From Clostridiaceae bacterium (GTDB lineage Bacteria > Bacillota > Clostridia > Lutisporales > Lutisporaceae), in NCBI GenBank assembly GCA_028697435.1, contig JAQVFD010000001.1, positions 1 to 31,779 on the forward strand: DNA of 31,779 bases, written 5' to 3'. This document shows positions 347-18,281 of this stretch, piece by piece; position 1 is the stretch's first letter; each line of letters begins with the position of its first letter. The notes below the pieces were generated by a model. That model was not told the origin of the DNA. It ran no database searches and worked only from the letters and a program-made list of their open reading frames with translations. The position numbers and the translations under genes were made by a program.

Positions 347-371
347 GAAATAGTAAAATTATGTAATTTTC

Positions 372-400: not shown

Positions 401-409
401 AGTAACATA

Positions 410-423
410 AGAACATTTGTTCG
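410..423. promoter_or_regulatory. LexA/DinR SOS (Cheo) box
   Basis: aGAACatttGTTCg = GAAC-N4-GTTC, just downstream of the -10 of the recA promoter. Confidence 0.88.
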
Positions 424-456
424 TTATGCCTTTAAGGCATAAGTGATGAAAGGACG

Positions 457-1512: not shown

Positions 1513-1539
1513 TAATTGAAATATGAGGATATTGTTTTC

Positions 1540-2163: not shown

Positions 2164-2215
2164 ATTCATGGAGTTTTTCATTATACCCTCAAATAGTTTG
2201 AATTGTCACAATAAC

Positions 2216-2244
2216 TTGACAAAATTTTGTATAAGTAATAAAAT
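2216..2244 (+). promoter_or_regulatory. Sigma-A-type promoter upstream of rny
   Basis: TTGACA (2216-2221), 17 bp, TAAAAT (2239-2244). Confidence 0.75.
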
Positions 2245-2373
2245 TATTCTGATATGGTGTATCAATTAAGAAGGCGTGTTCTTGTTATTATTTGTTAATT
2301 TTGTATATGATGATTATTAAGAAAAATAATGTAACCGATAGTCGATAAAATTAAATAATGAGGAGGTGAAAAT

Positions 2374-3906
2374 GTTATCGAATATATTATCTATATAGCA
2401 ATTGCACTAATTACCTTTATTGTAGGGTATTTGGTTAGAAGATATATTGCTGAATCAAAAATAAAAAATGCTGAAGAACAGGCAATAAAGATAGTTTGTG
2501 AAGCCGAAAAGCAATCAGAAACAAAAAAGAAAGAAGTTGTGCTTGAGGCGAAGGAAGAGATTCATAGGCTTAGAACTGAACTGGATAGAGAGACCCGTGA
2601 CAGAAGAAATGAAATCCAGAGAGCCGAAAGAAGATTGCTTCAAAGAGAAGAAAGCCTTGATAAAAAGGTTGAGAGTCTTGAACAAAGAGATGAAGCGATA
2701 ACAAAAAAACAAAAAGAAATACAGAAATCCCTGGAAGAAGTACAGGGTCTGTACAATAAGCAGTTAGAAGAGCTTGAAAGATTATCGGGGTTATCATCAG
2801 AAGATGCAAAACAGTTACTCTTAAACAATATAGAAAAGCAAATAAGGCATGAAGCTGCTATGCTGATCAAGGATATAGAGACCAAGGCTAAAGAAGAAGC
2901 AGAAAGAAAAGCCAAGGAGATCATAGCAAGTTCAATACAGAAGTGTTCTGCAGACCATGTTGCGGAAACTACAGTATCTGTAGTACCACTGCCGAATGAC
3001 GAGATGAAGGGAAGAATAATAGGACGCGAAGGCAGGAATATAAGAACATTAGAAACGCTTACAGGCATCGATTTGATAATCGATGATACACCAGAAGCCG
3101 TAATATTATCCGGTTTTGATCCAATAAGAAGGGAAGTTGCAAGGGTTGCTCTCGAAAAACTAATCGTTGATGGACGAATACATCCTGCCAGAATCGAGGA
3201 AATGGTTGAAAAGGCTAAGAAAGAGGTAGACAACTATATTAAGGAACAAGGTGAACAGGCTACCTTTGATACCGGAGTCCATGGATTGCATCCTGAGATT
3301 ATTAGACTTTTGGGAAGGTTGAGATTTAGAACCAGTTACGGACAAAATGTACTGAAACATTCCGTAGAAGTAGCACACCTTGCGGCAGCAATGGCTGCAG
3401 AGCTTGGTGCCGATGTGAAACTGGCAAAAAGGGCAGGTTTGCTGCATGACATAGGAAAAGCTGTTGATCATGAGGTAGAAGGTCCTCACGTTCAGATTGG
3501 TGCTGACCTTGTAAAGAAATATAAGGAATCCACCGAAATAATCCATGCTGTGGAAGCGCATCATGGAGATATTGAAGCTACAACTGTAGAAGCCGTTCTT
3601 GTTCAAGCAGCTGATGCTATATCTGCTGCAAGACCCGGAGCTAGAAGAGAAACCTTAGAATCATACATTAAACGTTTGGAAAAAATAGAAGAAATAGCTA
3701 ATTCATTTGATGGAGTTGAAAAATCTTTTGCTATTCAAGCCGGCAGGGAAGTCAGAATCATGGTTAAGCCGGAAGATGTAAGTGACAGTGAAATAGTATA
3801 TATCGCCAGAGATATAGTAAAAAAGATCGAGGACGAACTGGAATACCCCGGTCAAATAAAAGTAAATGTTATCAGAGAAACCAGGGCAATTGAATATGCA
3901 AAATAG
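2374..3906 (+). CDS. rny: Ribonuclease Y; the reading frame including the N-terminal membrane anchor is open from 2362, start codon unresolved (see findings)
   Basis: Coiled coil, KH motif [14 protein letters not shown] motif [21 protein letters not shown]-terminal IQAGREVR; in-frame hydrophobic segment [21 protein letters not shown] upstream of the ORF-track start at 2431. Confidence 0.95.
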
Positions 3907-3913
3907 AAAATGT

Positions 3914-3951
3914 GCGGCGATACATGCAAAATGCATGAAGCCGCCTTTTTT
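3914..3951 (+). terminator. Terminator-like hairpin between rny and ymdB
   Basis: GCGGC-gata-CATGCA-aaa-TGCATG-aa-GCCGC followed by a T run. Confidence 0.5.
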
Positions 3952-3971
3952 AATAATATGGAGGTATACAG

Positions 3972-4733
3972 ATGAACATACTTTTTATAGGTGATGTAAT
4001 CGGCAGGCCCGGCAGAAATTACCTAAGCAAGAATCTTAGCAGGCTTGTTGCAGAGAATAGTATTGATTTTACTATAATAAACGGAGAGAATTCTGCCGGA
4101 GGAGTCGGCATAACAAAGAGTACATATGATGAGCTGCTTAGTATGGGAGCAGATGTAATAACTCTCGGCAATCATTCCTGGGCGAAAAAAGAAGTATTAG
4201 AATTTATTGAAGATGCAGAAAGACTTATCAGACCCGCAAACTATCCTGAAGGCACCCCGGGAAAAGGATTCAGGATAATGGAAAGGACAGGAAAAAGGAT
4301 TGCCGTAGTAAATCTCTGCGGTAGAGTATATATGGATTGTATAGATTGTCCATTCCAAACTATTGATAAAATACTAATTGAGTTGAAGGATAAGGCAGAT
4401 ATCATAATAGTGGACTTTCATGGGGAAGCAACTTCAGAAAAGCTTGCAATGGGCTGGTATCTTGACAGTAAGGTTCATGCAGTAATAGGTACACATACCC
4501 ACGTTCAAACCTCTGACGAAAGGGTGTTGCCCGGTGGGACTGCATATATTACTGATGCAGGAATGACCGGTCCTTTGGATTCAATATTAGGTGTGGAAAA
4601 GGATCTGATCATAAAGAAGTTTATAACCGGTATGCCTGCAAAATTTGAAATTGCCGACGGCGAAGTAATTCTTGGGGCAGTAATTGTCCAGGTTGATAAT
4701 AATAATATAGTTAAAGGTATTAAAAGAATATAA
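3972..4733 (+). CDS. ymdB: YmdB/TIGR00282-family metallophosphoesterase (2',3'-cyclic nucleotide phosphodiesterase)
   Basis: LFIGDVIGRPG, NGENSAGG, TLGNH, VDFHGEATSEK, GTHTHVQT, TDAGMTGP; conserved rny-ymdB-spoVS order. Confidence 0.95.
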   Translation: MNILFIGDVIGRPGRNYLSKNLSRLVAENSIDFTIINGENSAGGVGITKSTYDELLSMGADVITLGNHSWAKKEVLEFIEDAERLIRPANYPEGTPGKGFRIMERTGKRIAVVNLCGRVYMDCIDCPFQTIDKILIELKDKADIIIVDFHGEATSEKLAMGWYLDSKVHAVIGTHTHVQTSDERVLPGGTAYITDAGMTGPLDSILGVEKDLIIKKFITGMPAKFEIADGEVILGAVIVQVDNNNIVKGIKRI

Positions 4734-4763
4734 TAATAACAAGGAAAAAAGCAGAAGTGATAG

Positions 4764-4793
4764 GGGGACAGGGACGAGGTATGAACTGTCCCC
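4764..4793. repeat. GC-rich inverted repeat in AT-rich intergenic DNA
   Basis: GGGGACAG (4764-4771), 14-nt loop, CTGTCCCC (4786-4793). Confidence 0.6.
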
Positions 4794-4826
4794 TTATTCC
4801 TTGAAAATTCTTAATTGTAGAATAAA

Positions 4827-4855
4827 AGAGGATTTTGCATATATTTGTAGAATAA
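4827..4855 (+). promoter_or_regulatory. Sigma-H-type promoter of spoVS
   Basis: AGAGGATTT-N11-GTAGAATAA matches RNAGGAWWW-N11/12-RNNGAATWW; spoVS is sigma-H dependent in B. subtilis. Confidence 0.75.
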
Positions 4856-4912
4856 TGTATTTAATTATACTTAGTAGTTTTTGGAATAGTATGATTGATA
4901 GGGGGGCTTAAA

Positions 4913-5173
4913 ATGGACGTATTAAAGGTTTCAGCAAAATCAAACCCAAATTCTGTTGCAGGAGCTTTGGCGGGAGTGTTGAGAGAAAAAGGATCCGCAG
5001 AAATTCAGACCATAGGGGCAGGAGCGCTGAATCAGGCAGTTAAAGCAGTTGCAATTGCCAGAGGATTTGTAGCTCCTGGAGGAATTGATTTGATATGCAT
5101 ACCTGCCTTCACCGATATACAAATAGATGGTGAAGAGAGAACGGCCTTAAAACTGATCATAGAACCCAGATAA
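4913..5173 (+). CDS. spoVS: Stage V sporulation protein S
   Basis: MDVLKVSAKSNPNSVAGALAG...GAGALNQAVKAVAIARGF; ATG 4913 behind a GGGGG SD. Confidence 0.97.
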   Translation: MDVLKVSAKSNPNSVAGALAGVLREKGSAEIQTIGAGALNQAVKAVAIARGFVAPGGIDLICIPAFTDIQIDGEERTALKLIIEPR

Positions 5174-5200
5174 AAAGCGTTCACGTTGAACGCTTTTTTT
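5172..5200 (+). terminator. Rho-independent terminator (possibly bidirectional)
   Basis: AAAAAGCGTTCA-cgt-TGAACGCTTTTT plus T run. Confidence 0.9.
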
Positions 5201-5226
5201 AATATATCAGAATTGGTAAAATTTCT

Positions 5227-5255
5227 TTGTGTGTTGTTTTGCATAATGATATAAT
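5227..5255 (+). promoter_or_regulatory. Candidate distal sigma-A promoter of the PHP-aminotransferase-purB-asnS unit
   Basis: TTGTGT-17-TATAAT with extended -10 TG (TGATATAAT 5247-5255). Confidence 0.5.
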
Positions 5256-5326
5256 AATTTCAGTTCCTGAAATTATTATAGAATAAATGCCGTGCGATTT
5301 TTTGCTCCGCAAAACGCACATAGCAG

Positions 5327-5359
5327 ATATCATAAAATCTTGGGATTTTATGATATAAT
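5327..5359 (+). promoter_or_regulatory. Perfect 13-bp inverted repeat overlapping a second extended -10 promoter
   Basis: ATATCATAAAATC-ttgg-GATTTTATGATAT (5327-5356); TGATATAAT at 5351-5359. Confidence 0.55.
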
Positions 5360-5401
5360 GATTCTATATGCATATTATATATAATGCACAGGAGGTTTAA
5401 T

Positions 5402-6259
5402 ATGCTCAAGGCTGACTTACATATTCATACTACAGCTTCTGACGGACTTATGAGTCCTGAAGAAGTAGTGCGATGGGCAAGTGTAAAAAGGCTGACTGCA
5501 ATAGGAATAACTGATCATGACACTGTAAAAGGTATCAGCCCTGCTGAAAAGGCTGCCTCTAAATACGCAATAGAAGTAATACCCGGAATAGAACTTAGTA
5601 CGACATTTGAAAATGAAGAAATACATATATTGGGGTATTATATAGATTACAAAGCACGGTGGTTCATAGATACTCTCAAAAAACTTCAGAAATCAAGATA
5701 TGAGAGAGCAGGGAAAATGGTAGGCAAACTTAATGACATGGGAATCGATATTACTCTTGACAAAGTTAAAGAAATAGCTGATGATGGAGCAATGGGAAGA
5801 CCTCATATTGCAAGAGCTATGATTGACAGCGGATACATAAGCAATATTAAAGAAGCATTCACGGAGTACATTGGCAAGGACCGTCCTGCCTACGTAGAGA
5901 GGTACAAACTATCCACGGGAGAAGCCATAGATATGATAAAAAAATTAGGAGGAGTATCTGTTCTTGCTCACCCCGGACTGTTACAAAACAAATCAGACTT
6001 AGGAAAAATAATTGCCCTTGGGATTAACGGAATCGAAGTTTACCATTCTAAACATGACGAAGATACTGTTAAAAGTATACTGGCTGTTGCACGCTCAAGA
6101 AATTTACTGATTACCGGAGGCTCCGACTGCCATGGTATGAAGATTAATAATGAACCGATATTGGGGAATTGTTCAATAGATTATAAATATGTTAAAATGC
6201 TCAAGAATGCAGCAGATAGCGAAATGAGGAGGAGAAAAAATGAAAATCGAACTGTCTAA
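5402..6259 (+). CDS. PHP-domain phosphoesterase (TrpH/YciV-like)
   Basis: DLHIHTTASDG, ITDHDT, PGIELS, HILGY, GRPHIARA, VLAHPG, ITGGSDCHG; ATG 5402 behind AGGAGG. Confidence 0.9.
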   Translation: MLKADLHIHTTASDGLMSPEEVVRWASVKRLTAIGITDHDTVKGISPAEKAASKYAIEVIPGIELSTTFENEEIHILGYYIDYKARWFIDTLKKLQKSRYERAGKMVGKLNDMGIDITLDKVKEIADDGAMGRPHIARAMIDSGYISNIKEAFTEYIGKDRPAYVERYKLSTGEAIDMIKKLGGVSVLAHPGLLQNKSDLGKIIALGINGIEVYHSKHDEDTVKSILAVARSRNLLITGGSDCHGMKINNEPILGNCSIDYKYVKMLKNAADSEMRRRKNENRTV

Positions 6260-7442
6260 TAAAAGTGCAAACATTGCGACTTCAATGACGCTGGCAATTG
6301 ATACCAAGCTTAAGCAGATGGTTGCGGGAGGAGAAACAGTATACGGCTTTGGTATAGGCGAACCGGATTTTGACACTCCTGAATACATAAGGATTGCAGC
6401 CATCGAAGCAATGAACAAAGGACTTACAAGATATACTCCGGCACAAGGAACTATGGAACTCAGAAAAGCAATATGCTCGAAATTAAAAAGAGAGAATAAC
6501 TTAGAATATGAACCAAATCAAATTATAGCTTCAAGCGGTGCAAAACACTCTCTCTCAAATGCTTTTGCAGCAATACTTAATCCCGGAGATGAGGTAATTG
6601 TGCCAAATCCATACTGGGTGAGCTATACAGAGATTATAAAGCTGAATGATGGTGTTCCTGTAATTGTAGAAACGAAAAAAGAAAACAACTTCAAAATGAC
6701 CGGGGATGAATTGAATAATGCAATAACTTCAAGAACAAAAGCAATACTTATAAATTCTCCAAGTAATCCTACAGGTTCAGTGTATACAGAAGGAGAATTA
6801 AGGGATATTGCAGAGATTGCGGTTAAAAATAACTTATTCGTTGTATCAGATGAGATATACGAGAGAATTATATATGATAATAATAAACATATCAGCATAG
6901 CTTCCTTTGGTAGTGAAATAAAAGATCTTACAATAATTATAAATGGGATGTCAAAGTCATACGCTATGACAGGCTGGAGACTTGGATATGCTGCCGGAAA
7001 TGAGAAATTGATAAAAGCAATGTCAAGTATTCAGAGCCATGCAGTATCTCATCCCAGTTCCATAACCCAATATGCTTCAGCAGCAGCTCTAAACGGACCT
7101 CAGGATGATCTGAAAAACATGGTTCAAGAATTTAATAAAAGAAGAAACTATATGTACGATAGGATAAATGCTATGGAAGGCCTTAGCTGTATAAAACCCG
7201 ATGGCGCCTTCTATGTGTATGTTGATATCAGTACTTATATTGGCAGAAAGCTATGTGGGATCAAACTCAATTCTTCTTTGGAATTTGCTCAGATTGTTCT
7301 TGAAAAAGGTAAAGTTGCGGTAGTACCTGGAACCGCATTCGGAACTGACAATTATATAAGGCTTTCTTATGCGACATCTATGGAAACAATAAAGAATGGT
7401 CTTGATCAATTCGAAAGCTTCATAAACAATAACATTGAATAG
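6240..7442 (+). CDS. Class I/II PLP-dependent aminotransferase (aspartate aminotransferase-like)
   Basis: GIGEPDFDTP, INSPSNPTG, SDEIYE, SKSYAMTGWRLGY with the PLP lysine. Confidence 0.92.
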   Translation: MKIELSNKSANIATSMTLAIDTKLKQMVAGGETVYGFGIGEPDFDTPEYIRIAAIEAMNKGLTRYTPAQGTMELRKAICSKLKRENNLEYEPNQIIASSGAKHSLSNAFAAILNPGDEVIVPNPYWVSYTEIIKLNDGVPVIVETKKENNFKMTGDELNNAITSRTKAILINSPSNPTGSVYTEGELRDIAEIAVKNNLFVVSDEIYERIIYDNNKHISIASFGSEIKDLTIIINGMSKSYAMTGWRLGYAAGNEKLIKAMSSIQSHAVSHPSSITQYASAAALNGPQDDLKNMVQEFNKRRNYMYDRINAMEGLSCIKPDGAFYVYVDISTYIGRKLCGIKLNSSLEFAQIVLEKGKVAVVPGTAFGTDNYIRLSYATSMETIKNGLDQFESFINNNIE

Positions 7443-7456
7443 GGTGGTATTTTACA

Positions 7457-8890
7457 GTGAATAGGAAGGAATACCAAAACCCCTTGATTAGCAGGTATGC
7501 AAGTAAAGAGATGTCCTTTATCTTTTCCGAGGATTACAAGTTTTCTACCTGGAGAAAGCTGTGGGTTGCCCTTGCCGAAAGCGAAATGGAGCTTGGGCTG
7601 GATATCACCAAAGAACAGGTAGAAGAACTGAAAGAACACATATATGATATTAACTATGAGGATGCTGAGAAAAGAGAAAAGGAGACTCGGCATGATGTAA
7701 TGTCTCATATATATGCTTATGGTTTGCAATGCCCTAAGGCAAAACCCATAATACATCTTGGAGCTACCAGTGCATATGTAGGTGATAATACAGATATAAT
7801 ACAGATGTCCGCAAGTCTTAAGCTTATAAGGATCAAGCTTCTCAATGTTATAAGAAACCTTGCAATTTTTGCGGAAAAATATAAGCAGATGCCTACATTA
7901 GGCTTTACACATTTTCAGCCCGCACAACTGACCACTGTCGGAAAGAGAAGCTGCTTGTGGATACTTGATTTTCTAATGGATTTAGAGGAACTTGACTTCG
8001 AGCTGGGCAGGCTCAGGCTGAGGGGGGTCAAGGGGACTACCGGTACTCAAGCAAGCTTTATGTCGCTTTTTAACGGAGATAATGAAAAAGTAAAGGAATT
8101 GGATGCCAGAGTCACAAAAAAAATGGGATTTGAGCGCAGCTTTCCTGTGACAGGCCAAACATACTCAAGGAAACTTGACAGCATGATTTTGAATGTACTG
8201 ACACAAATAGCAGAATCAGCTCATAAATTCAGTAATGATATACGCCTTCTTCAAAGCCTGAAGGAGGTTGAGGAACCTTTTGAAAAGAACCAGATAGGCT
8301 CATCGGCAATGGCATACAAGAGAAATCCTATGAGATGTGAAAGGATTGCAGCTTTGTCAAGGTTTGTTATTGCAAATTCAATAAATCCTGCAATAACTGC
8401 AGCTTCTCAATGGTTTGAAAGAACTCTTGATGACTCTGCCAATAAGAGGCTGGCAATTCCACATGGCTTCCTGGCAGTTGACAGCATACTGAATATACTT
8501 ATAAACGTGACTGATGGTCTTGTAGTAAATGAGATGATGATAAAACGACACATTGATGAGGAGCTCCCATTTATGGCAACAGAAAATATTTTGATGGAAG
8601 CAGTGAAAGCGGGAGGAGACAGGCAGGAACTCCATGAAAAAATAAGGCAGTTTTCTATTGAGGCAGGAAGAAGAGTTAAAGAGCAAGGCTTGGAAAACAA
8701 TCTGATAAATCTCATAGAAGGGGATTCAAGCTTTAAGTTGGGCAAGAACAGAATACAGGAACTGCTGAGCATCGAAAACTTTATAGGAAGATCACAGGAG
8801 CAGGTTGTTGAATTCCTGTCGGAACACGTATATCCGCTTCTGAATAAAAACAATGAAGATTTAGATATAATAGTGGACTTAAAAGTATAA
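7457..8890 (+). CDS. purB: Adenylosuccinate lyase
   Basis: [38 protein letters not shown] signature. Confidence 0.96.
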
Positions 8891-8919
8891 AACATAATCA
8901 CACTTTAGGAGGAGAGCAT

Positions 8920-10311
8920 ATGAGCAGCGTAATGATAAAACAGCTTTACAGGATTACGGGAGAATACATTAATAAAAGCATTAAGGTATCAGGGTGGGTG
9001 AAAACCGAAAGAACTTCGAAAAATTTCGGTTTTATAGAATTAAACGATGGAAGCTTTTTCAAGAATCTTCAGATAGTATTTGAAGAAAGTCTTGAAAACT
9101 TTGATGATATAACCAAGCTTTCGGTAGGTTCTGCCATAAGTGTAGAAGGATTGCTTATAGAGTCTCCCGGGGCGAAGCAGCCCTTTGAGCTTAAAGCCGA
9201 TAGAATTATTATAGAAGGCAAATCAACAGCTGATTATCCGCTTCAGAAAAAGAGTCATTCTTTTGAATTCTTAAGAACAATAGCCCATCTGAGGCCCAGG
9301 ACAAATACCTTTTCGGCGGTATTCAGAATAAGATCCATTGTAGCATACGCAATTCACAGTTTTTTTCAAGAAAAGGGCTTTGTATATGTTCATGCTCCTA
9401 TAATAACCGGTAGCGATGCAGAAGGCGCAGGAGAGATGTTCAGGGTTACTACATTGGATATTGATAATCCTCCCAGGACAGAAGAGGGGAAAATTGACTT
9501 CTCAAAGGATTTCTTCAGTAAGTCGGCAAACCTTACTGTAAGTGGTCAGCTAAATGTCGAAACTTTTTGCATGGCCTTCAGGAATGTATATACTTTTGGT
9601 CCTACATTCAGAGCAGAGAACTCAAATACAGCAAGACATGCTGCAGAATTTTGGATGATAGAACCGGAAATAGCATTTGCAGAGCTTTCGGACAATATGG
9701 AACTGGCAGAAGATATGGTAAAGTATATAATCAATTATGTTTTGGAAAATGCTCCGGAGGAAATGGAATTTTTCAATAGATTTATAGATAATACTCTTCT
9801 CGAAAGACTTAATAACATTGTAAACTCTGATTTTGGAGTAATTACTTATACCGAAGCTGTGGATATATTAATAAAATCGAATGTTAAATTTGAATATCCC
9901 GTTGAATGGGGAATTGACCTGCAGACAGAGCATGAAAGATATATTACCGAACAGGTCTTTAACAAACCGGTATTTGTAATCAACTATCCAAAGGAAATAA
10001 AGGCCTTCTATATGAGAATGAACGAAGATGGAAAAACAGTAGCAGCAATGGATCTTTTAGTTCCCGGAGTCGGTGAAATAATCGGAGGCAGCCAGAGGGA
10101 AGAAAGACTGGATGTTCTTGAGAAAAAGATGGATGAAATGAAACTTAATAAAGAAGATTACTGGTGGTATCTTGACATAAGAAAATACGGCACAGTCAAG
10201 CATGCCGGATATGGTTTGGGTTTTGAAAGAATGATAATGTATGTAACCGGGATGAGCAATATAAGAGATGTTGTACCCTTCCCCAGAACTGTGAAGTCCG
10301 CTGAGTTTTAG
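8920..10311 (+). CDS. asnS: Asparagine--tRNA ligase
   Basis: [53 protein letters not shown]. Confidence 0.97.
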
Positions 10312-10332
10312 CCTCTTGTATACTTCAAGGTA

Positions 10333-10359
10333 ACTAAATGAGACAACAACTCATACAAT
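10333..10359 (+). promoter_or_regulatory. Candidate mother-cell (sigma-E/sigma-K type) promoter
   Basis: CATACAAT at 10352-10359 matches the sigma-E -10 consensus; AC 17 bp upstream is sigma-K-like; -35 otherwise weak. Confidence 0.4.
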
Positions 10360-10408
10360 GGAAGTATAGGTTGTTAGTAATTTATTAATCTTGAAGGGAG
10401 GCTAAATA

Positions 10409-10672
10409 ATGAGTCGTAGGCACTCATCAGCATATAACGCAGTGCCGCCTGCAACTTGACAGCCGGCACCTTTACCGGTGGCTTCACCGGCACGCAGTCT
10501 GTTTTCAATGCCTTTTTCGTTACCTGCAATGCCGGCAGGAGAATTGTTGGGAGGAATCAGTAATGCCACAAGAGGATTCATTTCAAATGGAAACTGGTGG
10601 GTATTACTGCTTATAATTTTTTTATTCTTTCCTAAAGTCAGTGGCAGGATGTTTGGAGGATTGCTTAGATAA
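10409..10672 (+). pseudogene. Small Pro/Ala-rich protein with C-terminal hydrophobic helix, interrupted by an in-frame TGA at codon 17
   Basis: GGAGG SD (10397-10401) 7 nt before ATG 10409; same frame as ORF-track ORF 10478-10672; TGA at 10457-10459. Confidence 0.55.
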
Positions 10673-10687
10673 TGGGATAATCAGCTA

Positions 10688-10716
10688 TTGACTAAGTGTG
10701 AAATTTTTTATATAAT
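10688..10716 (+). promoter_or_regulatory. Sigma-A promoter of tRNA-Trp
   Basis: TTGACT-17-TATAAT. Confidence 0.85.
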
Positions 10717-10729
10717 AAATAAGTGTCGC

Positions 10730-10805
10730 AGGGGTATAGCTCAACTGGTAGAGTAGCGGTCTCCAAAACCGTTGGTTGAGGGTTCAAGTCCTTCTGCCCC
10801 TGCCA
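10730..10805 (+). tRNA. tRNA-Trp (anticodon CCA), 76 nt, encoded 3' CCA
   Basis: Acceptor AGGGGTA/TGCCCCT, D arm GCTC..GAGT, anticodon arm GCGGT-CTCCAAA-ACCGT, T loop GGTTCAAGTCC. Confidence 0.98.
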
Positions 10806-10818
10806 AATATGATTTTAC

Positions 10819-10850
10819 AGTCGCAATGATTTGCGGCTTTTTTTATTTTT
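10819..10850 (+). terminator. Terminator after tRNA-Trp
   Basis: AGTCGCAA-tgat-TTGCGGCT followed by a long T run. Confidence 0.75.
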
Positions 10851-10918
10851 GTTCATATTAGTATTTCACATTTCCATAGTCCTCATGTTATTAAGAATTT
10901 GGTGTTCTAATTATATAA

Positions 10919-10934
10919 TTGTATTTTTATACAA
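10919..10934. promoter_or_regulatory. Candidate operator of the PucR-family regulator
   Basis: TTGTAT-N4-ATACAA inverted repeat; further half-sites ATACAA at 10967 and TTGTAT at 10986. Confidence 0.45.
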
Positions 10935-11057
10935 ATATTAGTATTATTTTTGAACCTTATGAACGAATACAAAATATTCAGATAATTGTATAACAAAATT
11001 ACATTACCGGTAATGTATCCTATTCATTTAATAAAAAATGTAAGGGGGTACTTTGTA

Positions 11058-12164
11058 ATGGCAAGAAGAGATATGAATGAATCTCAAATAATTGATGTGA
11101 TCTGGGGGGCGACACTTCTTGGCGGAGGCGGCGGAGGTTCACTTAAAAATGGTATGGACCTGTTAAACAAATATAAAGAGGATCATCCTGGTAAAATAAA
11201 TCTGAATCTTTTGGAGTGTTCGGATCTGGATCCCTTTAATTATGCTGCAGTTACTGCAGGTATGGGTGCACCGAAGGCAATCAAGGATGTTGATTTTTCC
11301 GCTTATGCCACCAACGCTTATAATGCCTTGAGTGATCTTGCAATGAAATTGGATCCTCCGCGAAGGCTTAAATATTCAATCGCAGTTGAAATGGGGGGGT
11401 TCAATACCTTTGTACCTATGCTAATTTCTTTGGTTAACGACATACCGTTTATTGATGCGGATGGTGCAGGACGTGCGGTACCTGCACTGAACACACTGCT
11501 TCTGCACATTAACGGTTTGGACACTTCACCTCTTGCTATGGCAGACGGGAAAAACAACAGAGTAACTATCGAGATGGCAAATACAAAGGATGCGGAACTG
11601 GCCGAAGAAATAGGCCGGCATATCTGCATGGCTTTCAGTATGATGAGCGGTCTTTCGGGCTGGATGGTACGCAGGGATGAAATTGAGAAGTATCTACCAT
11701 GCGGAACTGTTACATTAGCAGAAAAGATAGGTAAAGTACTTCGTGCAGCCAACACGAAAGATAAATTTGCAGAATTGAAGAGAATCGGCGTAGCGTGTCA
11801 TCCGTTCTGCGAGGGTGAAGTAACCAAAGTAGAGACGATAACCGAAAAGGGATTTGACTATGGAAAAGTGTATATCAAGGATAAGGCAGGTTCTCAATGG
11901 ATTATCTTCTTCCAAAATGAAAACCTGTTGGTTACCAGAAATGACCTGCCAATAATGACTGTGCCGGATATTATCTGTACCTATCAACCTGAGTCAGGTC
12001 TTCCTTTAACGAATGCTGATATTGAAGAAAAAATGCCAATTGCCCTTGGTGCGATAAAAGTTGATAAGAAATGGGAAATGTATCCTGAAAAGATGTTTGA
12101 TATGTGGAGACCTTTCCTGAAGAGAGTTGGATATGAAAAGGAACGTATACCTTATAAAGAATAA
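11058..12164 (+). CDS. DUF917-family protein
   Basis: GATLLGGGGGGS, EMGGFNT, IDADGAGRAVP, MTVPDIIC motifs recognised as DUF917; ATG 11058 behind AAGGGGG SD. Confidence 0.8.
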   Translation: MARRDMNESQIIDVIWGATLLGGGGGGSLKNGMDLLNKYKEDHPGKINLNLLECSDLDPFNYAAVTAGMGAPKAIKDVDFSAYATNAYNALSDLAMKLDPPRRLKYSIAVEMGGFNTFVPMLISLVNDIPFIDADGAGRAVPALNTLLLHINGLDTSPLAMADGKNNRVTIEMANTKDAELAEEIGRHICMAFSMMSGLSGWMVRRDEIEKYLPCGTVTLAEKIGKVLRAANTKDKFAELKRIGVACHPFCEGEVTKVETITEKGFDYGKVYIKDKAGSQWIIFFQNENLLVTRNDLPIMTVPDIICTYQPESGLPLTNADIEEKMPIALGAIKVDKKWEMYPEKMFDMWRPFLKRVGYEKERIPYKE

Positions 12165-12178
12165 GGCAATGCTGCTGA

Positions 12179-12213
12179 GGAGCCGCCCGAAGTAAATCTG
12201 CTAAGGCGGCTTC
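12179..12213 (+). other. Intercistronic GC hairpin without a T tract (possible mRNA stabiliser/processing site)
   Basis: GGAGCCGCC-N17-GGCGGCTTC. Confidence 0.45.
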
Positions 12214-12263
12214 TTGCTACAGATGTATGATAGGTTTCTATTAAATTTTGGGAGGTAATAAAA

Positions 12264-13589
12264 ATGGAGAGTGCTAAGTCAAGCAATATTGAGCGTAAAG
12301 CTTTAAGCCAAATTACGGAAAGCGAAAGACAAAACTGGACCAGTATTGCATTTATATGGATAGGTACTATGATATGTATTCCGATGCTGATGGTAGGAGG
12401 TATATTTTCTGCATCAATGACCCTTGCTAATACTACCCTTGCTGCATTTATAGGATTTGCAATTTGCTCCTTGATAATGGTGCTTACCGGTATTCAAGGT
12501 ACTGATCTTGGGCTTCCTTGCACCATGTGCGCAACAAAAGCTTTCGGCGATCGGGGCTCATCCTTCTTAATGAGCGTAGTAATATTAATTGCACAGTTAG
12601 GATGGTTCGGAGTACAAACTGCCACCTGTGCTGCTGCCTTTAACACCCTGTTGATGTATTGGAGCATTCCTTTTCCCTTCTGGCTTTCTTGCGTTATCTG
12701 GGGCGGAGTCATGTTGTTTACAGCTGTGTATGGTTTTAAATTTATGAAAATACTCAATTATATAGCAGTGCCGGCCTTGGTTGTGCTCTGTTGCTACGGT
12801 GCAATTTATGCTATAAATACCAAAGGATTCAGTAACCTCATAGCTTTTCTACCTGAAACTGCAATGCCTCTAAGCACAGCTGTATCCATAGTTATTGGAC
12901 TGTTTGCAGTAGGAACCGTTATTAATGCGGATTTTTCCCGTTATGCAAAAAGTCGTGTAGATACAGCAAAGGCTACAGTCTTAGGAGTATTACCTGCCGC
13001 AGTATTGATGATATTTATTGGTGCAGTAATGGCTATGGCAGCAGGCAACTATGATATCACTGTCGTATTCGCAAGTCTCGGTATGCCCGTAATAAGCATG
13101 CTTGTACTGATTCTTGCCACATGGACGACAAATACCGGTAATGCATATACGGCAGGATTGGCGGCTATGAAGGTATTTAGCTTCAAAGATGAGCTTCGTC
13201 CGATTGTGACACTTGTTTGCGGTGCCGCCGGTACTATAGTTGCCATAGCCGGACTGGCTGCTGTTCTTCAATCCTTTATAAGCATCCTTAGCAGCCTTGT
13301 TCCTCCTATAGCAGGTATTATGATTGCCGATTACTGGATAATAGGCAAGGGTAATCCCGAAAACTGGTATCCGGTTAAAGGTATCAATTGGATAGGAATA
13401 TTGTCCTGGGCAGCCGGTTCAGTAGTAGCACTTTTCTTCAGCTTTTTCAGCCCTGCACTTGATGGAATATTAACTTGTCTGGTTGCTTATCTGATACTCA
13501 ATTCATTGTTTGGAAAAACATCCTTAGCCGGGGGTGGCAGGATAGACGTAGGTGAAATGATAAATCTTATAAAGGAGGAAGCAATATGA
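12264..13589 (+). CDS. NCS1-family (cytosine/CodB-like) nucleobase or hydantoin permease
   Basis: About 12 hydrophobic segments; FG.RGS, GWFGVQ, DFSRYA, WTTNTGNAY, PPIAGIMIADYW motifs. Confidence 0.88.
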   Translation: MESAKSSNIERKALSQITESERQNWTSIAFIWIGTMICIPMLMVGGIFSASMTLANTTLAAFIGFAICSLIMVLTGIQGTDLGLPCTMCATKAFGDRGSSFLMSVVILIAQLGWFGVQTATCAAAFNTLLMYWSIPFPFWLSCVIWGGVMLFTAVYGFKFMKILNYIAVPALVVLCCYGAIYAINTKGFSNLIAFLPETAMPLSTAVSIVIGLFAVGTVINADFSRYAKSRVDTAKATVLGVLPAAVLMIFIGAVMAMAAGNYDITVVFASLGMPVISMLVLILATWTTNTGNAYTAGLAAMKVFSFKDELRPIVTLVCGAAGTIVAIAGLAAVLQSFISILSSLVPPIAGIMIADYWIIGKGNPENWYPVKGINWIGILSWAAGSVVALFFSFFSPALDGILTCLVAYLILNSLFGKTSLAGGGRIDVGEMINLIKEEAI

Positions 13590-14542
13590 ATATCAACCGT
13601 AAAATTGTAGAAGCAGCAAAGAAGCTTATTATTGACTGCTTAGGTACAAAGAAGGATGAACAATTGCTGATTGTAGGTGATGAAAAGACCTCCGAACTGG
13701 CATATGGTTTTGCCGTTGCAGGCAGAGAGTGTGGAATATCTACAACTTATGTAGAGGCTCCTTCCCAGGCAAAGGGAGAGCCTCCGGCAACAGTTGGCGC
13801 CGCAATGTCAGAAGCAAATGTAGAATTTCTTCTTACCTCCATGAGTTATTCACATGTAAATGCCCGCATTGCTGCTACAAATAAGGGAGCCCGTATTGCG
13901 TCAATGCCTATGATGAACACAGATATTGCAGAGAATTATCTGAATGCAGATTATCCTCTTATCAAAAAAGTAAGTGAACAACTTGCCGATATGCTCACAA
14001 CAGCCAAGGTTGTAAGGGTCGTAACCGACAAGGGCACTGATGTGACTCTATATATAGAAGGACGATCTTGTCATGCTGACACAGGTGATTTGACAGAAAC
14101 CGGTGCTTTAGGTAATTTGCCTGCCGGAGAGGCATACATTGCGCCTTTGGAAAATGTGGGAGAGGGCAAAATTATAGTAGATGGCTGCATTGCTTATTTA
14201 GGTCCTGTAGAGGATGATGTAATACTCACCCTTAGTGATGGTCGTATTACTGCTATAGAAGGCAATAAAAGCGCTTCTGACTTGAAGAAATTTCTGGAGG
14301 ATAAGGATGAAGAAGCATGGGGTATTGCCGAGTTTGGTATCGGGACCAATCCCGGAGCAAAAATCATAGGTCACCCATTAGTTGATGAAAAGGTATGGGG
14401 TACTATACACATAGCTTTTGGAATGAATGCCTCAATGGGCGGCACTCGCCAGTCGAATATCCACTATGATTGTATTATCAATTCTCCAACTGTATGGATT
14501 GACGGACAATTGGTTCTCGATCACGGAAATCATGTTTATTAA
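13586..14542 (+). CDS. M29/COG2309-like metalloenzyme (aminopeptidase AmpS/PepS-related fold)
   Basis: GNLPAGEAYIAP, AEFGIGTNP, DEKVWGTIHIAFG, SNIHYD; ATGA overlap with the permease. Confidence 0.8.
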   Translation: MNINRKIVEAAKKLIIDCLGTKKDEQLLIVGDEKTSELAYGFAVAGRECGISTTYVEAPSQAKGEPPATVGAAMSEANVEFLLTSMSYSHVNARIAATNKGARIASMPMMNTDIAENYLNADYPLIKKVSEQLADMLTTAKVVRVVTDKGTDVTLYIEGRSCHADTGDLTETGALGNLPAGEAYIAPLENVGEGKIIVDGCIAYLGPVEDDVILTLSDGRITAIEGNKSASDLKKFLEDKDEEAWGIAEFGIGTNPGAKIIGHPLVDEKVWGTIHIAFGMNASMGGTRQSNIHYDCIINSPTVWIDGQLVLDHGNHVY

Positions 14543-14560
14543 ACAGGATTGTCAATTCAT

Positions 14561-14591
14561 AACCGGTTTCAGCATTTGAAGCCGGTTTTTG
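14561..14591 (+). terminator. Rho-independent terminator
   Basis: AACCGGTTTCA-gcatt-TGAAGCCGGTT plus TTT. Confidence 0.8.
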
Positions 14592-14682
14592 TCTTCCATA
14601 ATGTTCTATTAATAGTAAACTATTGTATTTCTGCATTACTATCATATATAATAATATAAAATATATTTTGGGAGGTGATATT

Positions 14683-16302
14683 TTGAGCATTATGGTTTCT
14701 GATTGTCTGAATCTCTCCGCATTACGAGAGGCAAAGGTTGTTGCCGGTCATAGGGGGCTCAATAAAATAGTGTCTTCCGTTTCAGTGCTGGAATATGCAG
14801 ATATCTCTCTTCTTGTAGACGGGTTGTTCTTAGGAAATGAACTCATCATCTCGGCCTTGGTTTCCATTAAGGATGATGTGGAAGCTCAGTGCCGGCTTAT
14901 ACACCGCTTGCATGAAGTGGGTGAAGTTGGACTTATATTGTATTATACGGGAATATTCGTGCTATGCTTAGACAGGCGGCTTATTCAGACAGCAGATGAG
15001 TTGGATTTTCCCTTGATTTGTATGCCGGAGAATCGTTTTGATTTCCGGTATAGTGAAGCAATCAGCGAAATATTGGGATTAGTTATCAAAGACCAGATGA
15101 AGGAAACATATTTTGTAACCGGTATAATAGACCGCATCACACAACTGCAAGAGAAACAGCAAACTATCGGTGCTGTGATGCGTATGCTAAGTGACCGCTT
15201 GCACTGTACACTATTGCTTGCAAACCATAATATGGAGCAGAGAGGTTTTGCAGCATGGCCAATGGCATCCCGGTGGGCTTATAAGGAAATATTGGATGAA
15301 TACCTGCAGAATCAGCAATTACCGCCACTGGAGAGTTCTGTCTGTATAAAAATAAATGATATTACATTATATATAAATCATATTTCAATCACATTTGAGA
15401 CTGAACCAATTATGTATTTAATAGCTGTAAATGAGTATCATCCGCTTCTCGTGTACCACTTAAAGCAGGCAGCTGAAGTAATTCAGATATTCATAAATAA
15501 TTGGCAGTATGATTTTGGGATTGCAGATTCTTACGCGTTAATGCAAGCCATATTGGAGGATGATCCTCCACGAATGCGACAAGTTGCAAAATCTCTTAAT
15601 ATTGATGTTTCATCAATCCATACTATGTGGGCTCTTAAAGAAGTCGGCACTAAGGGAAGTGCCTCAAATGAACTTCAACAGAAGCAAAACCTACGAATAA
15701 AGCGTACAATGATAACTAAGTCATTTTTGCAGGAACACCGGAAGTTGGTACTGGTTGACACGGTAAATGACTCGGTGATAGCTTTTATGAATGACAGCCC
15801 ATTTCATGATGGGGATGACGGATTAGAAAAAACATTCATGGAAGTACTCAGATACAAGGATCAGGATTCATTACTTGTGGTATGTACAAATCTAATGACC
15901 ACATCTGACGTAAGAAATGCTTATACACTTTTGCAGACTTGCCTGGATACTTGTCATAGAATTTACCCTTATAAGAGGATAATATATCTGCATGAACTGC
16001 AGTTTGCAGAACAATGTATGTCCATATTGGAACAAGGTGAAGCCTTAACTGAAAACTATCTTGTACCTCTCAAACCTCTTCAGTCTCAAGAGGACAGTAA
16101 TGAGCTTATAGATACACTGTCTGCCTTCCTTTTGGATGCGCAGTGTAACATGCAGCAGACAGGTGAACGGTTGTTTTTACATAAAAACACAGTTAAATAC
16201 CGAATCAACAAAATAAAACAGCGTATAGGCTATGATATATCAAAAATGCCGGGAGCTTATAAGCTGTATCTTGCTGTGGCCCTTTACAGGCTTATTAATT
16301 AA
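14683..16302 (+). CDS. PucR-family transcriptional regulator
   Basis: N-terminal PucR-like sensor (VVAGHRGLNKIVSSVSVLE, GNELII, ADELDFPLI) and C-terminal HTH (LFLHKNTVKYRINKI); TTG 14683 behind GGAGGTG. Confidence 0.9.
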   Translation: MSIMVSDCLNLSALREAKVVAGHRGLNKIVSSVSVLEYADISLLVDGLFLGNELIISALVSIKDDVEAQCRLIHRLHEVGEVGLILYYTGIFVLCLDRRLIQTADELDFPLICMPENRFDFRYSEAISEILGLVIKDQMKETYFVTGIIDRITQLQEKQQTIGAVMRMLSDRLHCTLLLANHNMEQRGFAAWPMASRWAYKEILDEYLQNQQLPPLESSVCIKINDITLYINHISITFETEPIMYLIAVNEYHPLLVYHLKQAAEVIQIFINNWQYDFGIADSYALMQAILEDDPPRMRQVAKSLNIDVSSIHTMWALKEVGTKGSASNELQQKQNLRIKRTMITKSFLQEHRKLVLVDTVNDSVIAFMNDSPFHDGDDGLEKTFMEVLRYKDQDSLLVVCTNLMTTSDVRNAYTLLQTCLDTCHRIYPYKRIIYLHELQFAEQCMSILEQGEALTENYLVPLKPLQSQEDSNELIDTLSAFLLDAQCNMQQTGERLFLHKNTVKYRINKIKQRIGYDISKMPGAYKLYLAVALYRLIN

Positions 16303-16314
16303 CTTAATTTCGGA

Positions 16315-17106
16315 TTAATAGAAACTCTTTTGTGTTACTCCCCATTTTCTTAAAGTTTCATCATTGCCTATCCAGACAGGTATTCCGACAGACACAATAT
16401 TATAAAGACTTAAGACATCTGAATTTATCATACGGATACAACCTTTTGAGATTTGCCGTCCGATAGAATACGGACTGTTATTCCCATGAATGCCGTACAA
16501 ATTGCCTTTTCCAACAGAAAGGCCTATCCATCTTATGCCGAGGGGGTTCTTCGGAGATCCGCCTGCTACCGGTTTTTTGCCATCAACTGGGGACCATATA
16601 GGATTTTTTCTCTTCAGACGCACATGAAATTTCCCCTGAGGCGTCTTATTTGTGGTTTTTCCTATTGCTATAGGATACTTTCTTATGACATTCTTTCCTC
16701 TATAGAGAGTTAGTATTCTTCTTGTACGGTTAATAGTAATCCAATACCCTTTGGAGGCAGGTCTGGCAATAATGTCCGGGGACCTGAACTTATTGTTTAG
16801 AGAAAGCCTCTTTATCATGGCAGATTTGAATTGAGGGCCTTGGATACCGTCCGCGGCAAGGTTGCAGTCACTTTGAAACCTAAGAGTTGCATTTCTAAGA
16901 TTAATATTTTCATCTTGATAATCATTTTTGTAGTAACCCATAGATCTCAACGCTTCTACATAATTAGTGCTGTTCAACTCGGAGAAGGTTTCTTCCTCCG
17001 GACAATCCATAAGTTCTCTTATAAGTGCGCCATCAGGTTCTGCGATAACATTAATGTAAAATACAAAAAATAATAGCAAAATAGCAGCGAGTAATCTTTT
17101 GCACAT
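16315..17106 (-). CDS. Secreted L,D-transpeptidase (YkuD family) with N-terminal peptidoglycan-binding-like domain
   Basis: Signal peptide; FQSDCNLAADGIQG (PG-binding-like); YPIAIGK, TPQGKF, YGIHGNN...SKGCIRM catalytic His/Cys motif. Confidence 0.88.
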   Translation of the reverse strand: MCKRLLAAILLLFFVFYINVIAEPDGALIRELMDCPEEETFSELNSTNYVEALRSMGYYKNDYQDENINLRNATLRFQSDCNLAADGIQGPQFKSAMIKRLSLNNKFRSPDIIARPASKGYWITINRTRRILTLYRGKNVIRKYPIAIGKTTNKTPQGKFHVRLKRKNPIWSPVDGKKPVAGGSPKNPLGIRWIGLSVGKGNLYGIHGNNSPYSIGRQISKGCIRMINSDVLSLYNIVSVGIPVWIGNDETLRKWGVTQKSFY

Positions 17107-17135
17107 ATACTACCTCCTTGATACTAAAAAATGTT

Positions 17136-17165
17136 AAAAGTAAAGGAGAGTGGAATACTCTCCTT
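17136..17165 (-). terminator. Terminator of the SASP gene
   Basis: AAGGAGAGT-N5-ACTCTCCTT stem followed on the minus strand by T-rich sequence. Confidence 0.75.
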
Positions 17166-17174
17166 CTGTAAGTA

Positions 17175-17390
17175 TTAGAATCTTGTTCCGGTTGTTCCTG
17201 CCATATTCCTCTCAGCTGTTTCAATTAGCCGCCTTACCATCTGTCCGCCTATTTTACCTGCATCCTTAGCCGCTATGTCTCCATTATAGCCTTCCTTTAA
17301 AGTGACACCAACTTCGGTTGCTATTTCATATTTAAATCTTTCAAGTGCCGCTGCTGCATGAGGTACTACTTTTTGATTGTTCCTTGCCAT
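17175..17390 (-). CDS. Alpha/beta-type small acid-soluble spore protein
   Basis: FKYEIATEVGV, AGKIGGQMVRRLIETAE; ATG 17390 behind GAGGAGGTG. Confidence 0.95.
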   Translation of the reverse strand: MARNNQKVVPHAAAALERFKYEIATEVGVTLKEGYNGDIAAKDAGKIGGQMVRRLIETAERNMAGTTGTRF

Positions 17391-17446
17391 TCTATTCACC
17401 TCCTCGAACAATATGTATAATGAGCAAATAATGATTTACGCATTAT

Positions 17447-17476
17447 TATTTTGGTTAAGCTTCAATATTTATATCC
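17447..17476 (-). promoter_or_regulatory. Candidate forespore (sigma-G/F type) promoter of the SASP gene
   Basis: Minus strand GGATA-N18-CAAAATA; alpha/beta SASPs are sigma-G dependent in studied spore formers. Confidence 0.55.
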
Positions 17477-17612
17477 AAGTAAATATTGCCTAATTTGCCG
17501 CATTAAGTTATTGATTAATATACCTGAAAATCCATCACAAAATAAACAGTAATAATGTAAATAATAATAGTGTCATCATAAATGACAAATCAAAAAGAAG
17601 GGAGATTGTTTA

Positions 17613-18281
17613 ATGAGAAGTGAAAAATTTTTATTAAGAGCACTTTGCGCAAGCTTGGCCGTTTGTTTGATATTTTCTGCCGGTATTTTGACTTTTGCTG
17701 ATGCTAAAGCTGCACCAGCTCCGGCTTTAGAAAAAACAGTTAAACACAAGCAGTTCCTGGAGGAAGCTGTACAGAGACTAGTGGAGGAAGGTAGCTTAAC
17801 AAAGGAAAAGGCAGATAAAATAATTGAATATAAACAAAAAAGAAAAGAAGAGCAAAAAAATCAGCACTCAGAACATAGAGATCATTTAATTGATAAGGGC
17901 AAAAGAGGAAGCCTGATTAAGGAACTGATACAGGAAGCCATAATAACAGAAGAGGAAGCAAACGCTATCAGAGAAAAATTGCGGGAAATGAAGGAAGAAA
18001 GATTTGCCGACGGACTGCAAGGGCTTATTGATAAAGGTGTTCTTACAGCAAAGGATATTGACAATATCAGAAGTTATATGCTGAAAACCAGGGAAGAGCG
18101 CAAAGCAACAATCGAAAAATTAAAATCTATGAATCCTGAAGAAAGAAAAGCATATTTTAAGGAGTATCGGAAAGGGCAAAAAGATATTCTGATAAAAATG
18201 GTAGAAGATAAGGTAATTACTAAGGATCAGGCAGAAGAAATAAGAAAGGCATTACCTGAAATGAATAGATTAAGACACTAG
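17613..18281 (+). CDS. Secreted, highly charged helical protein with four LxxxGxxTxxxAxxI-like repeats
   Basis: Signal peptide; repeats LVEEGSLTKEKADKI, LIQEAIITEEEANAI, LIDKGVLTAKDIDNI, MVEDKVITKDQAEEI; GGGAG SD. Confidence 0.8.
   Translation: MRSEKFLLRALCASLAVCLIFSAGILTFADAKAAPAPALEKTVKHKQFLEEAVQRLVEEGSLTKEKADKIIEYKQKRKEEQKNQHSEHRDHLIDKGKRGSLIKELIQEAIITEEEANAIREKLREMKEERFADGLQGLIDKGVLTAKDIDNIRSYMLKTREERKATIEKLKSMNPEERKAYFKEYRKGQKDILIKMVEDKVITKDQAEEIRKALPEMNRLRH

Follow-up and report, generated by a model that had tools for sequence, protein, structure and literature searches.

The 31,779-nucleotide stretch of Clostridia DNA analysed here (the window) carries a 5.5-kb cassette of four genes, encoding a DUF917 protein, an NCS1-family permease, an M29/NicX-like protein (hereafter the M29-like protein) and a PucR-family regulator, that is inherited as a set and is present or absent as one block. 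The grouping of these genes is far beyond chance and recurs in every close relative. The gene content and co-inheritance of the set, the folds of its enzymes, the intact two-metal and permease sites and the block-wise presence or absence are direct observations. We propose, with a probability of roughly 40%, that the set is a horizontally mobile cassette whose inducible genes break down a small amino-acid-derived cyclic amide, with diketopiperazines as the leading candidates. The general cluster family is already known from a bioinformatic catalogue (PMC11055893); new here is the definition of the minimal NCS1 and PucR cassette as a co-evolving, precisely bounded accessory unit.

A profile of the M29-like protein, run against one genome per species, picked up 80 loci. 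All nine loci with at least 44% identity to the protein carry permease and PucR genes, and eight of them also carry DUF917; the ninth ends inside the permease gene at a contig end. In a maximum-likelihood tree of M29-like proteins that took in metagenomic relatives as well, the module proteins form a clade of 13 (support 100/99). DUF917 and NCS1 genes lie alongside in 12 of these, the locus of the thirteenth being cut by a contig end. An earlier note on this DNA, made from its letters alone, had staked its proposal beforehand on co-conservation of the M29-like and DUF917 genes, and the tree bears this out. A tree of DUF917 proteins contains a matching clade with the same sub-groupings, and this congruence indicates that the two enzymes travelled together. 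PucR homologues of 532–545 amino acids, encoded on either strand, flank the module in all full-length loci of the M29-like clade. At least four gene orders occur (DUF917-NCS1-M29-like-PucR; PucR on its own side of DUF917-NCS1-M29-like; PucR-NCS1-M29-like-DUF917; and versions with inserted genes), and this shuffling among sub-clades points to selection acting on the set, not to inertia. The permease and M29-like genes nearly always sit side by side. Neither the cassette nor any of the 12 complete module loci contains a hydantoinase or oxoprolinase gene; the earlier note had already read the module as having no hydantoinase.

Comparison with genomes of the same genus, in which the flanks are conserved at 70–82% identity, defines the boundaries of the unit. 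In genome G167 the tRNA-Trp region (to window position 10843) lies only 3 nucleotides from the end of ykuD (window position 16315), and in genome G247 window position 10860 is joined directly to 16314; positions 10844–16314 are therefore absent as one block from these two genomes. Window positions 10861–16313 have no match in G167, G247 or G273, the last of these lacking a clean junction. Across the class, 24 of the 301 genomes sampled yielded DUF917; the other three genomes of this genus yielded none. The earlier note had described the module as a self-contained orphan. Its self-contained character holds, as the cassette has its own promoter, terminator and regulator and comes or goes as a block, but it is less of an orphan than was thought, since related clusters of DUF917, racemase, peptidase and transporter genes have already been catalogued (PMC11055893). 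The host genome is a metagenome assembly of 2.13 Mb that is 83% complete, and metagenomes from 11 studies (landfill, freshwater sediment, groundwater, sludge and wastewater) contain near-identical DNA.

By its alignment and predicted model, the M29-like protein joins a NicX architecture with an aminopeptidase metal site, a combination that is new here. Its AlphaFold model (pLDDT 95.4) best matches NicX (7cn3; TM score 0.87/0.80, root-mean-square deviation 2.8 Å, profile E-value 2e-19), upholding the NicX fold suggested by the earlier note. The next matches are PepS, AmpS and AmpT (TM scores 0.63–0.70), followed by the non-catalytic crocagin peptide-binding protein CgnE. The protein scores 57.8 bits against PF02073, over profile positions 190–392 of 406, which make up the C-terminal half; its homologues carry the Pfam NicX domain (PF26233) together with M29, and public records label the protein itself 'aminopeptidase'. 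Residues E182, E249, H275, H293 and D295 never vary among 39 diverse sequences, and they line up with the Glu-Glu-His-His-Asp metal ligands of AmpS and PepS. All five ligands align across the M29 aminopeptidases AmpS, PepS and AmpT (1zjc, 4icq, 2ayi), and the Pfam M29 match lies above its cut-off.

NicX, a 2,5-dihydroxypyridine 5,6-dioxygenase, resembles the M29-like protein in fold, in length and in the NicX domain found on homologues, but its metal site differs. It holds one Fe(II) through His-His-Asp, and the first of these His residues, in an ISHIGWG motif, aligns with Glu249; Phe, His and Leu/Phe stand at the positions of E182, E249 and H275, so that Glu182 and His275, invariant in the M29-like family, are absent from NicX. 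The full aminopeptidase ligand set argues for a predicted two-metal hydrolase rather than an iron dioxygenase. Assignment as a hydrolase also suits anaerobic hosts, and O2-dependent ring cleavage is unlikely in such lineages. A separate classic M29 gene is present in the same genome (contig C99) and in most sampled genomes, indicating that the gene in the cassette is not the housekeeping aminopeptidase. The cassette gene is tied to DUF917 and the permease and does not stand alone as a housekeeping gene would. Stand-alone members of the 318-amino-acid family (about 40% identity; from Ignavibacteriota, Bacteroidota, Acidobacteriota and others) adjoin OPT, M20 and MFS genes, which is a peptide-utilisation setting.

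The DUF917 protein matches both Pfam families of its type (PF06032 at 103.0 bits and PF20906 at 109.4 bits, cut-off 27 each). Its AlphaFold model (pLDDT 92.6) has a single match in the PDB, the structural-genomics entry 2o3i (TM score 0.85, Z score 45), and a single match in Swiss-Prot, the S-methyl thiohydantoin desulfurase of Variovorax (TM score 0.78, 18% identity), which, as the earlier note had stated, is the only characterised DUF917 relative. Fold searches (Foldseek on the PDB, VIA-align wide, Swiss-Prot) revealed no likeness to hydantoinases or other enzyme folds. A reading of the C-terminal barrel as a Mop/OB domain reached a Z score of only about 5 and was treated as noise. The window protein shares the two-domain DUF917 fold and the Pfam families with the desulfurase of Variovorax sp. 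RA8 (A0A6P2DWR2), but its gene context differs and includes neither ergothionase nor thiourocanate hydratase. Scores of 51.7 and 37.1 bits against the NCBIfam desulfurase equivalogs NF058532 and NF058529 fall below the cut-offs of 450 and 440, which makes the protein a family member and not an orthologue of the characterised desulfurases. Positions with at least 90% identity across 54 DUF917 proteins from several clades are all kept in the window protein: G22–G27 (a glycine-rich loop), G32, G70, E111, G113, G138-R139, P142, R187, N287-E288 and P303-D304. Among the 54 proteins no His or Cys is conserved, the site being made up of carboxylate, arginine and asparagine side chains, and a site of this composition leaves the chemistry unrevealed by sequence alone.

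Gene neighbourhoods offer a further view of the partnership. Of the 38 DUF917 genes that 23 Clostridia genomes contain, an M29/NicX-like gene lies within 5 kb of 15, and Hydantoinase_A within 5 kb of one. In Clostridia the usual DUF917 partners are thus M29-like proteins, not hydantoinases, a finding also new here and contrary to the association given in the earlier note. The pairing takes three forms: the NCS1 and PucR module; an adjacent pair at the end of a Dpp/Opp-type ABC operon; and DUF917 with AroM, DUF1177 and the M29-like gene, with or without a racemase. We also found two sister modules, a type new here, in which PucR accompanies NCS1-DUF917-X (L107:4449–8400 and L108:4756–8650, both from bacterial family f2) and X is an M20 protein. 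Both X proteins exceed the cut-off for Sapep, a Mn-dependent dipeptidase, and one also exceeds that for the dipeptidase PepV; neither scores as a carbamoylase-type M20 enzyme. The enzyme that accompanies DUF917 therefore seems, as judged by profile scores, to be repeatedly a two-metal exopeptidase. Other arrangements occur in single loci. L090 has Hydantoinase_A in the X slot beside DUF917, a xylose-isomerase-like TIM-barrel protein is encoded nearby in L089, and L117 combines PucR, NCS1, CN_hydrolase, racemase, DUF917 and M29-like genes.

The permease is NCS1-family and CodB-like, and its best NCBIfam match is cytosine permease. It scores 95.7 bits against PF02133 (cut-off 23.5) and 201.1 bits against the cytosine permease equivalog NF008241, for which the cut-off of 326 is not reached, and it is about equidistant from CodB (7qoa, 107 bits) and the hydantoin permease Mhp1 (94 bits). 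Its residues Q111, W114, F214 and R226 align with CodB Q105, W108, F204 and R216, and T288, T289, N290 and Y295 align with CodB T278, T279, N280 and Y285. The window permease thereby shares with CodB the sodium-site threonines, the three cytosine-contact side chains, Asn280, Arg216 and Tyr285 (PMC9379551), but it differs in its sub-cut-off equivalog score, in the lack of a codA deaminase partner and in a Gln position that is variable among sub-clades. At the position equivalent to CodB Gln105 the module sub-clades have Q, A, C, M or N, and the aromatic residue of transmembrane helix 6 varies too; at the Gln105 position such variation would suit a range of ring substrates that differ in their substituents. 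In the PucR regulator, the N-terminal domain PF07905 scores 88.3 bits and the PF13556 HTH_30 domain 60.1 bits.

Larger versions of the module carry accessory genes that bear on the fate of the substrate. Genes of the Asp/Glu/hydantoin-racemase family lie inside the module in five relative loci and AlbA/B-like nitroreductase pairs in three (L015, L016 and L084). In some loci genes of amino-acid catabolism come after the module, namely those for phosphate butyryltransferase (ptb; four loci), butyrate kinase (buk; three), an SDH_alpha protein (two) and a tryptophanase. A seven-gene run in L007 (1538–9334) comprises NCS1, M29-like, DUF917, racemase-like, ptb, buk and a tryptophanase-family lyase that exceeds its subfamily cut-off, a hint that tryptophan or a similar amino acid is the product of this version. 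Two of the loci with nitroreductase pairs, L015 and L016, belong to Dehalococcoidia, so the module crosses phyla. Among the carriers in culture are Anaerotignum lactatifermentans An390 (L006) and Chakrabartyella piscis BP5G (L003). Together the racemase, AlbA/B-like, ptb-buk, tryptophanase and SDH_alpha genes suggest that the end product is an amino acid, which is then fermented further, and that the substrate contains a stereocentre and resembles those on which cyclodipeptide-oxidase-like (CDO-like) enzymes act. The sole characterised homologues of the AlbA/B-like pairs oxidise cyclodipeptides (PMC11055893).

These pairs link the module to the clusters described by Andreas and Giessen (Nat Commun 2024), who found DUF917, hydantoin racemases, AroM, peptidases and transporters enriched around non-CDPS CDO-like genes and who suggest hydantoin- or allantoin-like substrates on the basis of a bioinformatic catalogue alone (PMC11055893). 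The window cassette differs from those clusters in lacking the oxidase pair, AroM and the racemase, in having NCS1 instead of a peptide transporter and in including PucR; the M29/NicX-like partner is not singled out in their catalogue (PMC11055893).

Beyond these observations we infer which class of substrate is used, in which order the two enzymes act, and what the regulator recognises, both as ligand and as target. In the proposed route, PucR would sense the compound or a pathway intermediate and activate the operon; the sodium-coupled NCS1 permease would bring in the ring compound; DUF917 would hydrolytically open or activate the ring; and the M29/NicX-like enzyme would act on the linear product as an exopeptidase-type amidohydrolase, freeing one or more amino acids for fermentation. 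Small 2,5-diketopiperazines (cyclic dipeptides) are the leading substrate class, with 5-substituted hydantoin-type rings a close second. Diketopiperazines rank first because the partner enzymes are of dipeptidase and aminopeptidase type, because some relatives are CDO-like and sister clusters include peptide transporters, and because these compounds withstand ordinary peptidases while bacteria possess specific inducible activities that cleave them (PMC3852281). The case for hydantoin-type rings, placed second, comes from the precedent of Mhp1, from the racemases, from the class of substrate known for DUF917 and from single loci in which CN_hydrolase or Hydantoinase_A is a neighbour. Our literature search, which included PMC3852281, found no gene named and no cloned hydrolase for diketopiperazine cleavage. 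That the DUF917 proteins of this clade are the missing ring-opening hydrolases, and the cassette a complete route for diketopiperazine use, is an attractive but doubtful extension; it would mean that NCS1 transporters carry a further class of substrate, that DUF917 opens the ring, that the M29-like protein is a dipeptidase and that PucR serves as the sensor. The gene contexts lend no specific support to creatinine or thiouracil-type substrates, which were also considered.

Several observations weigh against the cyclic-amide proposal. The sole characterised DUF917 enzyme desulfurates a thiohydantoin at C2 and does not open the ring. The cytosine-contact Gln, Trp and Phe of CodB are kept in the sub-clade of the window, which suggests, as far as aligned residues can tell, a very small polar planar ring, and we know of no NCS1 transporter that carries diketopiperazines. 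The M29-like protein is about 90 residues shorter than M29 aminopeptidases and lacks their full two-domain architecture of about 400 amino acids; judging by its model, which is nearer to that of NicX with its heterocycle substrate, it could bind the ring directly. The PepV-linked DUF917 proteins sit in another clade of the DUF917 tree than the window protein, which makes the argument from the shared slot one of analogy and not of displacement within one orthologous group. No racemase or AlbA-like homologue is present in the window's own genome (83% complete, as noted above), and the cassette is on this account a minimal form. A search for expression of the locus turned up no RNA run that contains it.

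Of the alternatives to the cyclic-amide proposal, an analogue of hydantoin utilisation is possible though somewhat doubtful. Here the permease would import a 5-substituted hydantoin or cyclic ureide, DUF917 would replace the hydantoinase and open the ring to an N-carbamoyl amino acid, and the M29-like protein would stand in for an M20 or CN-hydrolase carbamoylase. The cassette shares with the hyu operons (Mhp1/HyuP, racemase, HyuH, HyuC) the logic of an NCS1 permease and two successive hydrolases that lead from a cyclic derivative to an amino acid; several module relatives add a racemase-family gene, and substrate-responsive regulation is likely. That Mhp1 belongs to the same transporter family, that five relatives have hydantoin-racemase-family genes within the module and that the one characterised DUF917 protein works on a hydantoin-type ring all favour this interpretation, as do the gene set of L117, with its CN_hydrolase and racemase, and the Hydantoinase_A beside DUF917 in L090. 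PucR regulators, moreover, classically govern ureide and purine catabolism. In the ergothioneine pathway, however, a separate hydantoinase acts after the DUF917 step, and both M29 and PepV-type enzymes take substrates that have a free amino group. M20 carbamoylases form another subfamily than the M20 partners seen here, which score as PepV/Sapep dipeptidases; the DUF917 model has no fold similarity to any solved hydantoinase; and the L117 CN_hydrolase falls below every NCBIfam cut-off. Unlike the hyu operons, the cassette and the 12 full module loci contain no amidohydrolase-superfamily hydantoinase, no M20 (TIGR01879-type) carbamoylase and no CN-hydrolase carbamoylase, DUF917 and the M29/NicX-like protein occupying the hydantoinase and carbamoylase places, and there is no racemase in the window or its genome. 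Andreas and Giessen suggested DUF917 proteins as hydantoinases (PMC11055893).

A second alternative, built on the ring-opening role that the earlier note gave to the M29-like protein, starts with DUF917 acting hydrolytically on a thio- or imino-heterocycle (a thiohydantoin or a creatinine-like or cytosine-like ring, for example), where it would remove an exocyclic group and turn C=S or C=NH into C=O; the M29/NicX-like protein would then bind the heterocycle and open it by hydrolysis. Known DUF917 chemistry is indeed desulfuration at C2 of a thiohydantoin, NicX (the nearest fold) binds a six-membered N-heterocycle at its metal site, the CodB-type Gln, Trp and Phe contacts are retained, and the near-constant adjacency of the permease and M29-like genes extends to translational coupling in the window. 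This scheme fits the NicX-like architecture and the permease coupling but accommodates the peptidase-type metal site and the gene contexts less well, and we regard it as unlikely. The DUF917 protein falls far short of the desulfurase cut-offs and is only 18% identical to the desulfurase, the metal site is of aminopeptidase and not NicX type, a ring-opened ureide would require a third enzyme that the cassette does not contain, and it would go unexplained why the wider families keep company with PepV dipeptidases and peptide transporters. The earlier note's description of the M29-like protein as a ring-opener rather than a peptidase is likewise not favoured, given the five M29 metal ligands, the peptide-utilisation neighbours and the PepV/Sapep dipeptidase in the sister slot. 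A far more remote reading takes the permease as an importer of cytosine or a similar base for nucleobase salvage and the enzyme genes as unconnected neighbours, one of them a housekeeping aminopeptidase. It would explain why the permease's best family match is a cytosine permease and why public records label the M29-like protein simply as an aminopeptidase. It is very improbable in the face of the co-inheritance, congruent trees and shuffled gene orders, the presence of the cassette as a single indel, the sub-cut-off permease score, the absence of a deaminase or phosphoribosyltransferase gene from the cassette and the classic M29 gene found elsewhere in this genome and in most sampled genomes.

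Hardly any function has been assigned to DUF917 or to the short M29/NicX-like proteins, although both families are widespread. The cassette, with one permease, two enzymes, one regulator and clean boundaries, is the simplest setting of both. Being bounded and inherited as a block as well, it offers the most tractable way into the wider group of DUF917, racemase, AroM, DUF1177 and CDO-like clusters, which extends from Clostridia to Archaea. If the ring-opening route proposed here is correct, two enzyme families would be named, the NCS1 substrate range would be widened and a PucR-type biosensor gained, with a possible account of cyclic-amide recycling in sediments, landfills, sludge and guts. 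Should the substrates be diketopiperazines, it would be the first gene-level account of anaerobes consuming these peptidase-resistant compounds.

The layout of the cassette is consistent with an independently controlled unit (Table 1). Gene calls and profile matches place all four genes where the earlier note had read them, as three co-oriented genes closed by a terminator and followed by the regulator. The DUF917 ATG is preceded by the ribosome-binding site AAGGGGGT, and the M29-like ATG overlaps the NCS1 stop codon. The PucR start is probably the TTG that lies 8 nucleotides past a GGGAGGTG ribosome-binding site (14669–14676), and a TTTTGGGAGGT ribosome-binding context is common to the PucR and NCS1 genes. 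The terminator and an AT-rich promoter-like stretch before this TTG indicate that PucR has its own promoter region.

Upstream of the operon, the box AACGAATACAAA aligns with similar boxes 5′ of the leading operon gene in six loci, regardless of which gene leads. It is the sole perfect copy within the 31.8-kb window; copies with two mismatches occur at chance level, which leaves the perfect site as the one to be considered. A perfect 18-nucleotide palindrome, TACATTACCGGTAATGTA, sits further along, before the ribosome-binding site. It is kept with two changes in the nearest relative, L002, and may be an operator or overlap with the −10 region. Both elements are candidate PucR sites. A k-mer search of upstream regions returned mostly AT-rich noise, with two exceptions, the ACGAATACAAA-type box and the palindrome that L002 shares, and an Rfam search of the window matched tRNA-Trp alone, with no riboswitch or leader.

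Table 1 Features of the four-gene cassette (window coordinates)
Feature	Position	Strand	Details
Cassette, whole	10844..16314	+	Promoter region, three-gene operon, terminator and regulator gene; missing as one block in same-genus genomes
Candidate PucR-binding box AACGAATACAAA	10962..10973	+	Conserved upstream; putative role
Perfect 18-nucleotide palindrome TACATTACCGGTAATGTA	11000..11017	+	Between box and ribosome-binding site
DUF917 / S-Me-THD-family protein	11058..12164	+	368 amino acids; PF06032 and PF20906
NCS1-family sodium-coupled permease, CodB-like	12264..13589	+	441 amino acids; PF02133
M29/NicX-like two-metal hydrolase (predicted)	13586..14542	+	318 amino acids; PF02073; translationally coupled to permease gene
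Intrinsic terminator	14561..14587	+	12-bp stem with 5 G-C pairs, 3-nucleotide loop, then TTTTGTCTT (T run); closes three-gene operon
PucR-family regulator	14684..16302	+	About 539 amino acids from probable TTG start at 14684; frame open from 14623; PF07905 and PF13556

The cassette is preceded by asnS and by tRNA-Trp (10730–10805) with its terminator, and followed by a convergent L,D-transpeptidase gene (ykuD). We found no integrase gene and no convincing flanking direct or inverted repeats at the cassette edges. The G+C content of window positions 11001–15000 is 0.41–0.43, compared with 0.35–0.40 in the flanks (9001–11000 and 16001–18000), a rise that is compatible with acquisition beside tRNA-Trp.

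Some loci show signs of change within the module or its families. The NCS1 gene is frameshifted in the two nearest relatives (G049 and G082, of the same family), near residues 308 and 229; the frameshifted permease loci are L002:1984–3293, L115:6916–8225 and L112:7158–8479, and the permease gene of the window is intact. The frameshifts could reflect real decay of the module or assembly error in metagenome bins. In L114 (4375–4527; G108, contig C61), a 50-residue remnant of an M29-like C terminus follows directly after an intact DUF917 gene and appears to be a decayed partner gene. One Clostridia genome has six DUF917 paralogues, four of them within 30 kb of a single contig (L092 and L093; G157:C4:4000–33500), in differing contexts, and this cluster looks like a hotspot for the enzyme family.

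In the three relatives with nitroreductase pairs (L084:3133–8960, L015:5784–10990 and L016:7989–10985), the AlbA-like protein is accompanied by a small DUF6092/AlbB-like partner, with a racemase in L084 and L015. A link of ptb and buk to the cassette in the window's own genome was considered and set aside, as the many paralogues elsewhere in that genome cannot be tied to it. The remainder of the upstream window (2–10311) is occupied by housekeeping genes: the end of cinA, recA, recX, the genes for RNase Y, ymdB and a PHP-domain protein, and those for a class I/II aminotransferase and an adenylosuccinate-lyase-family protein ahead of asnS.

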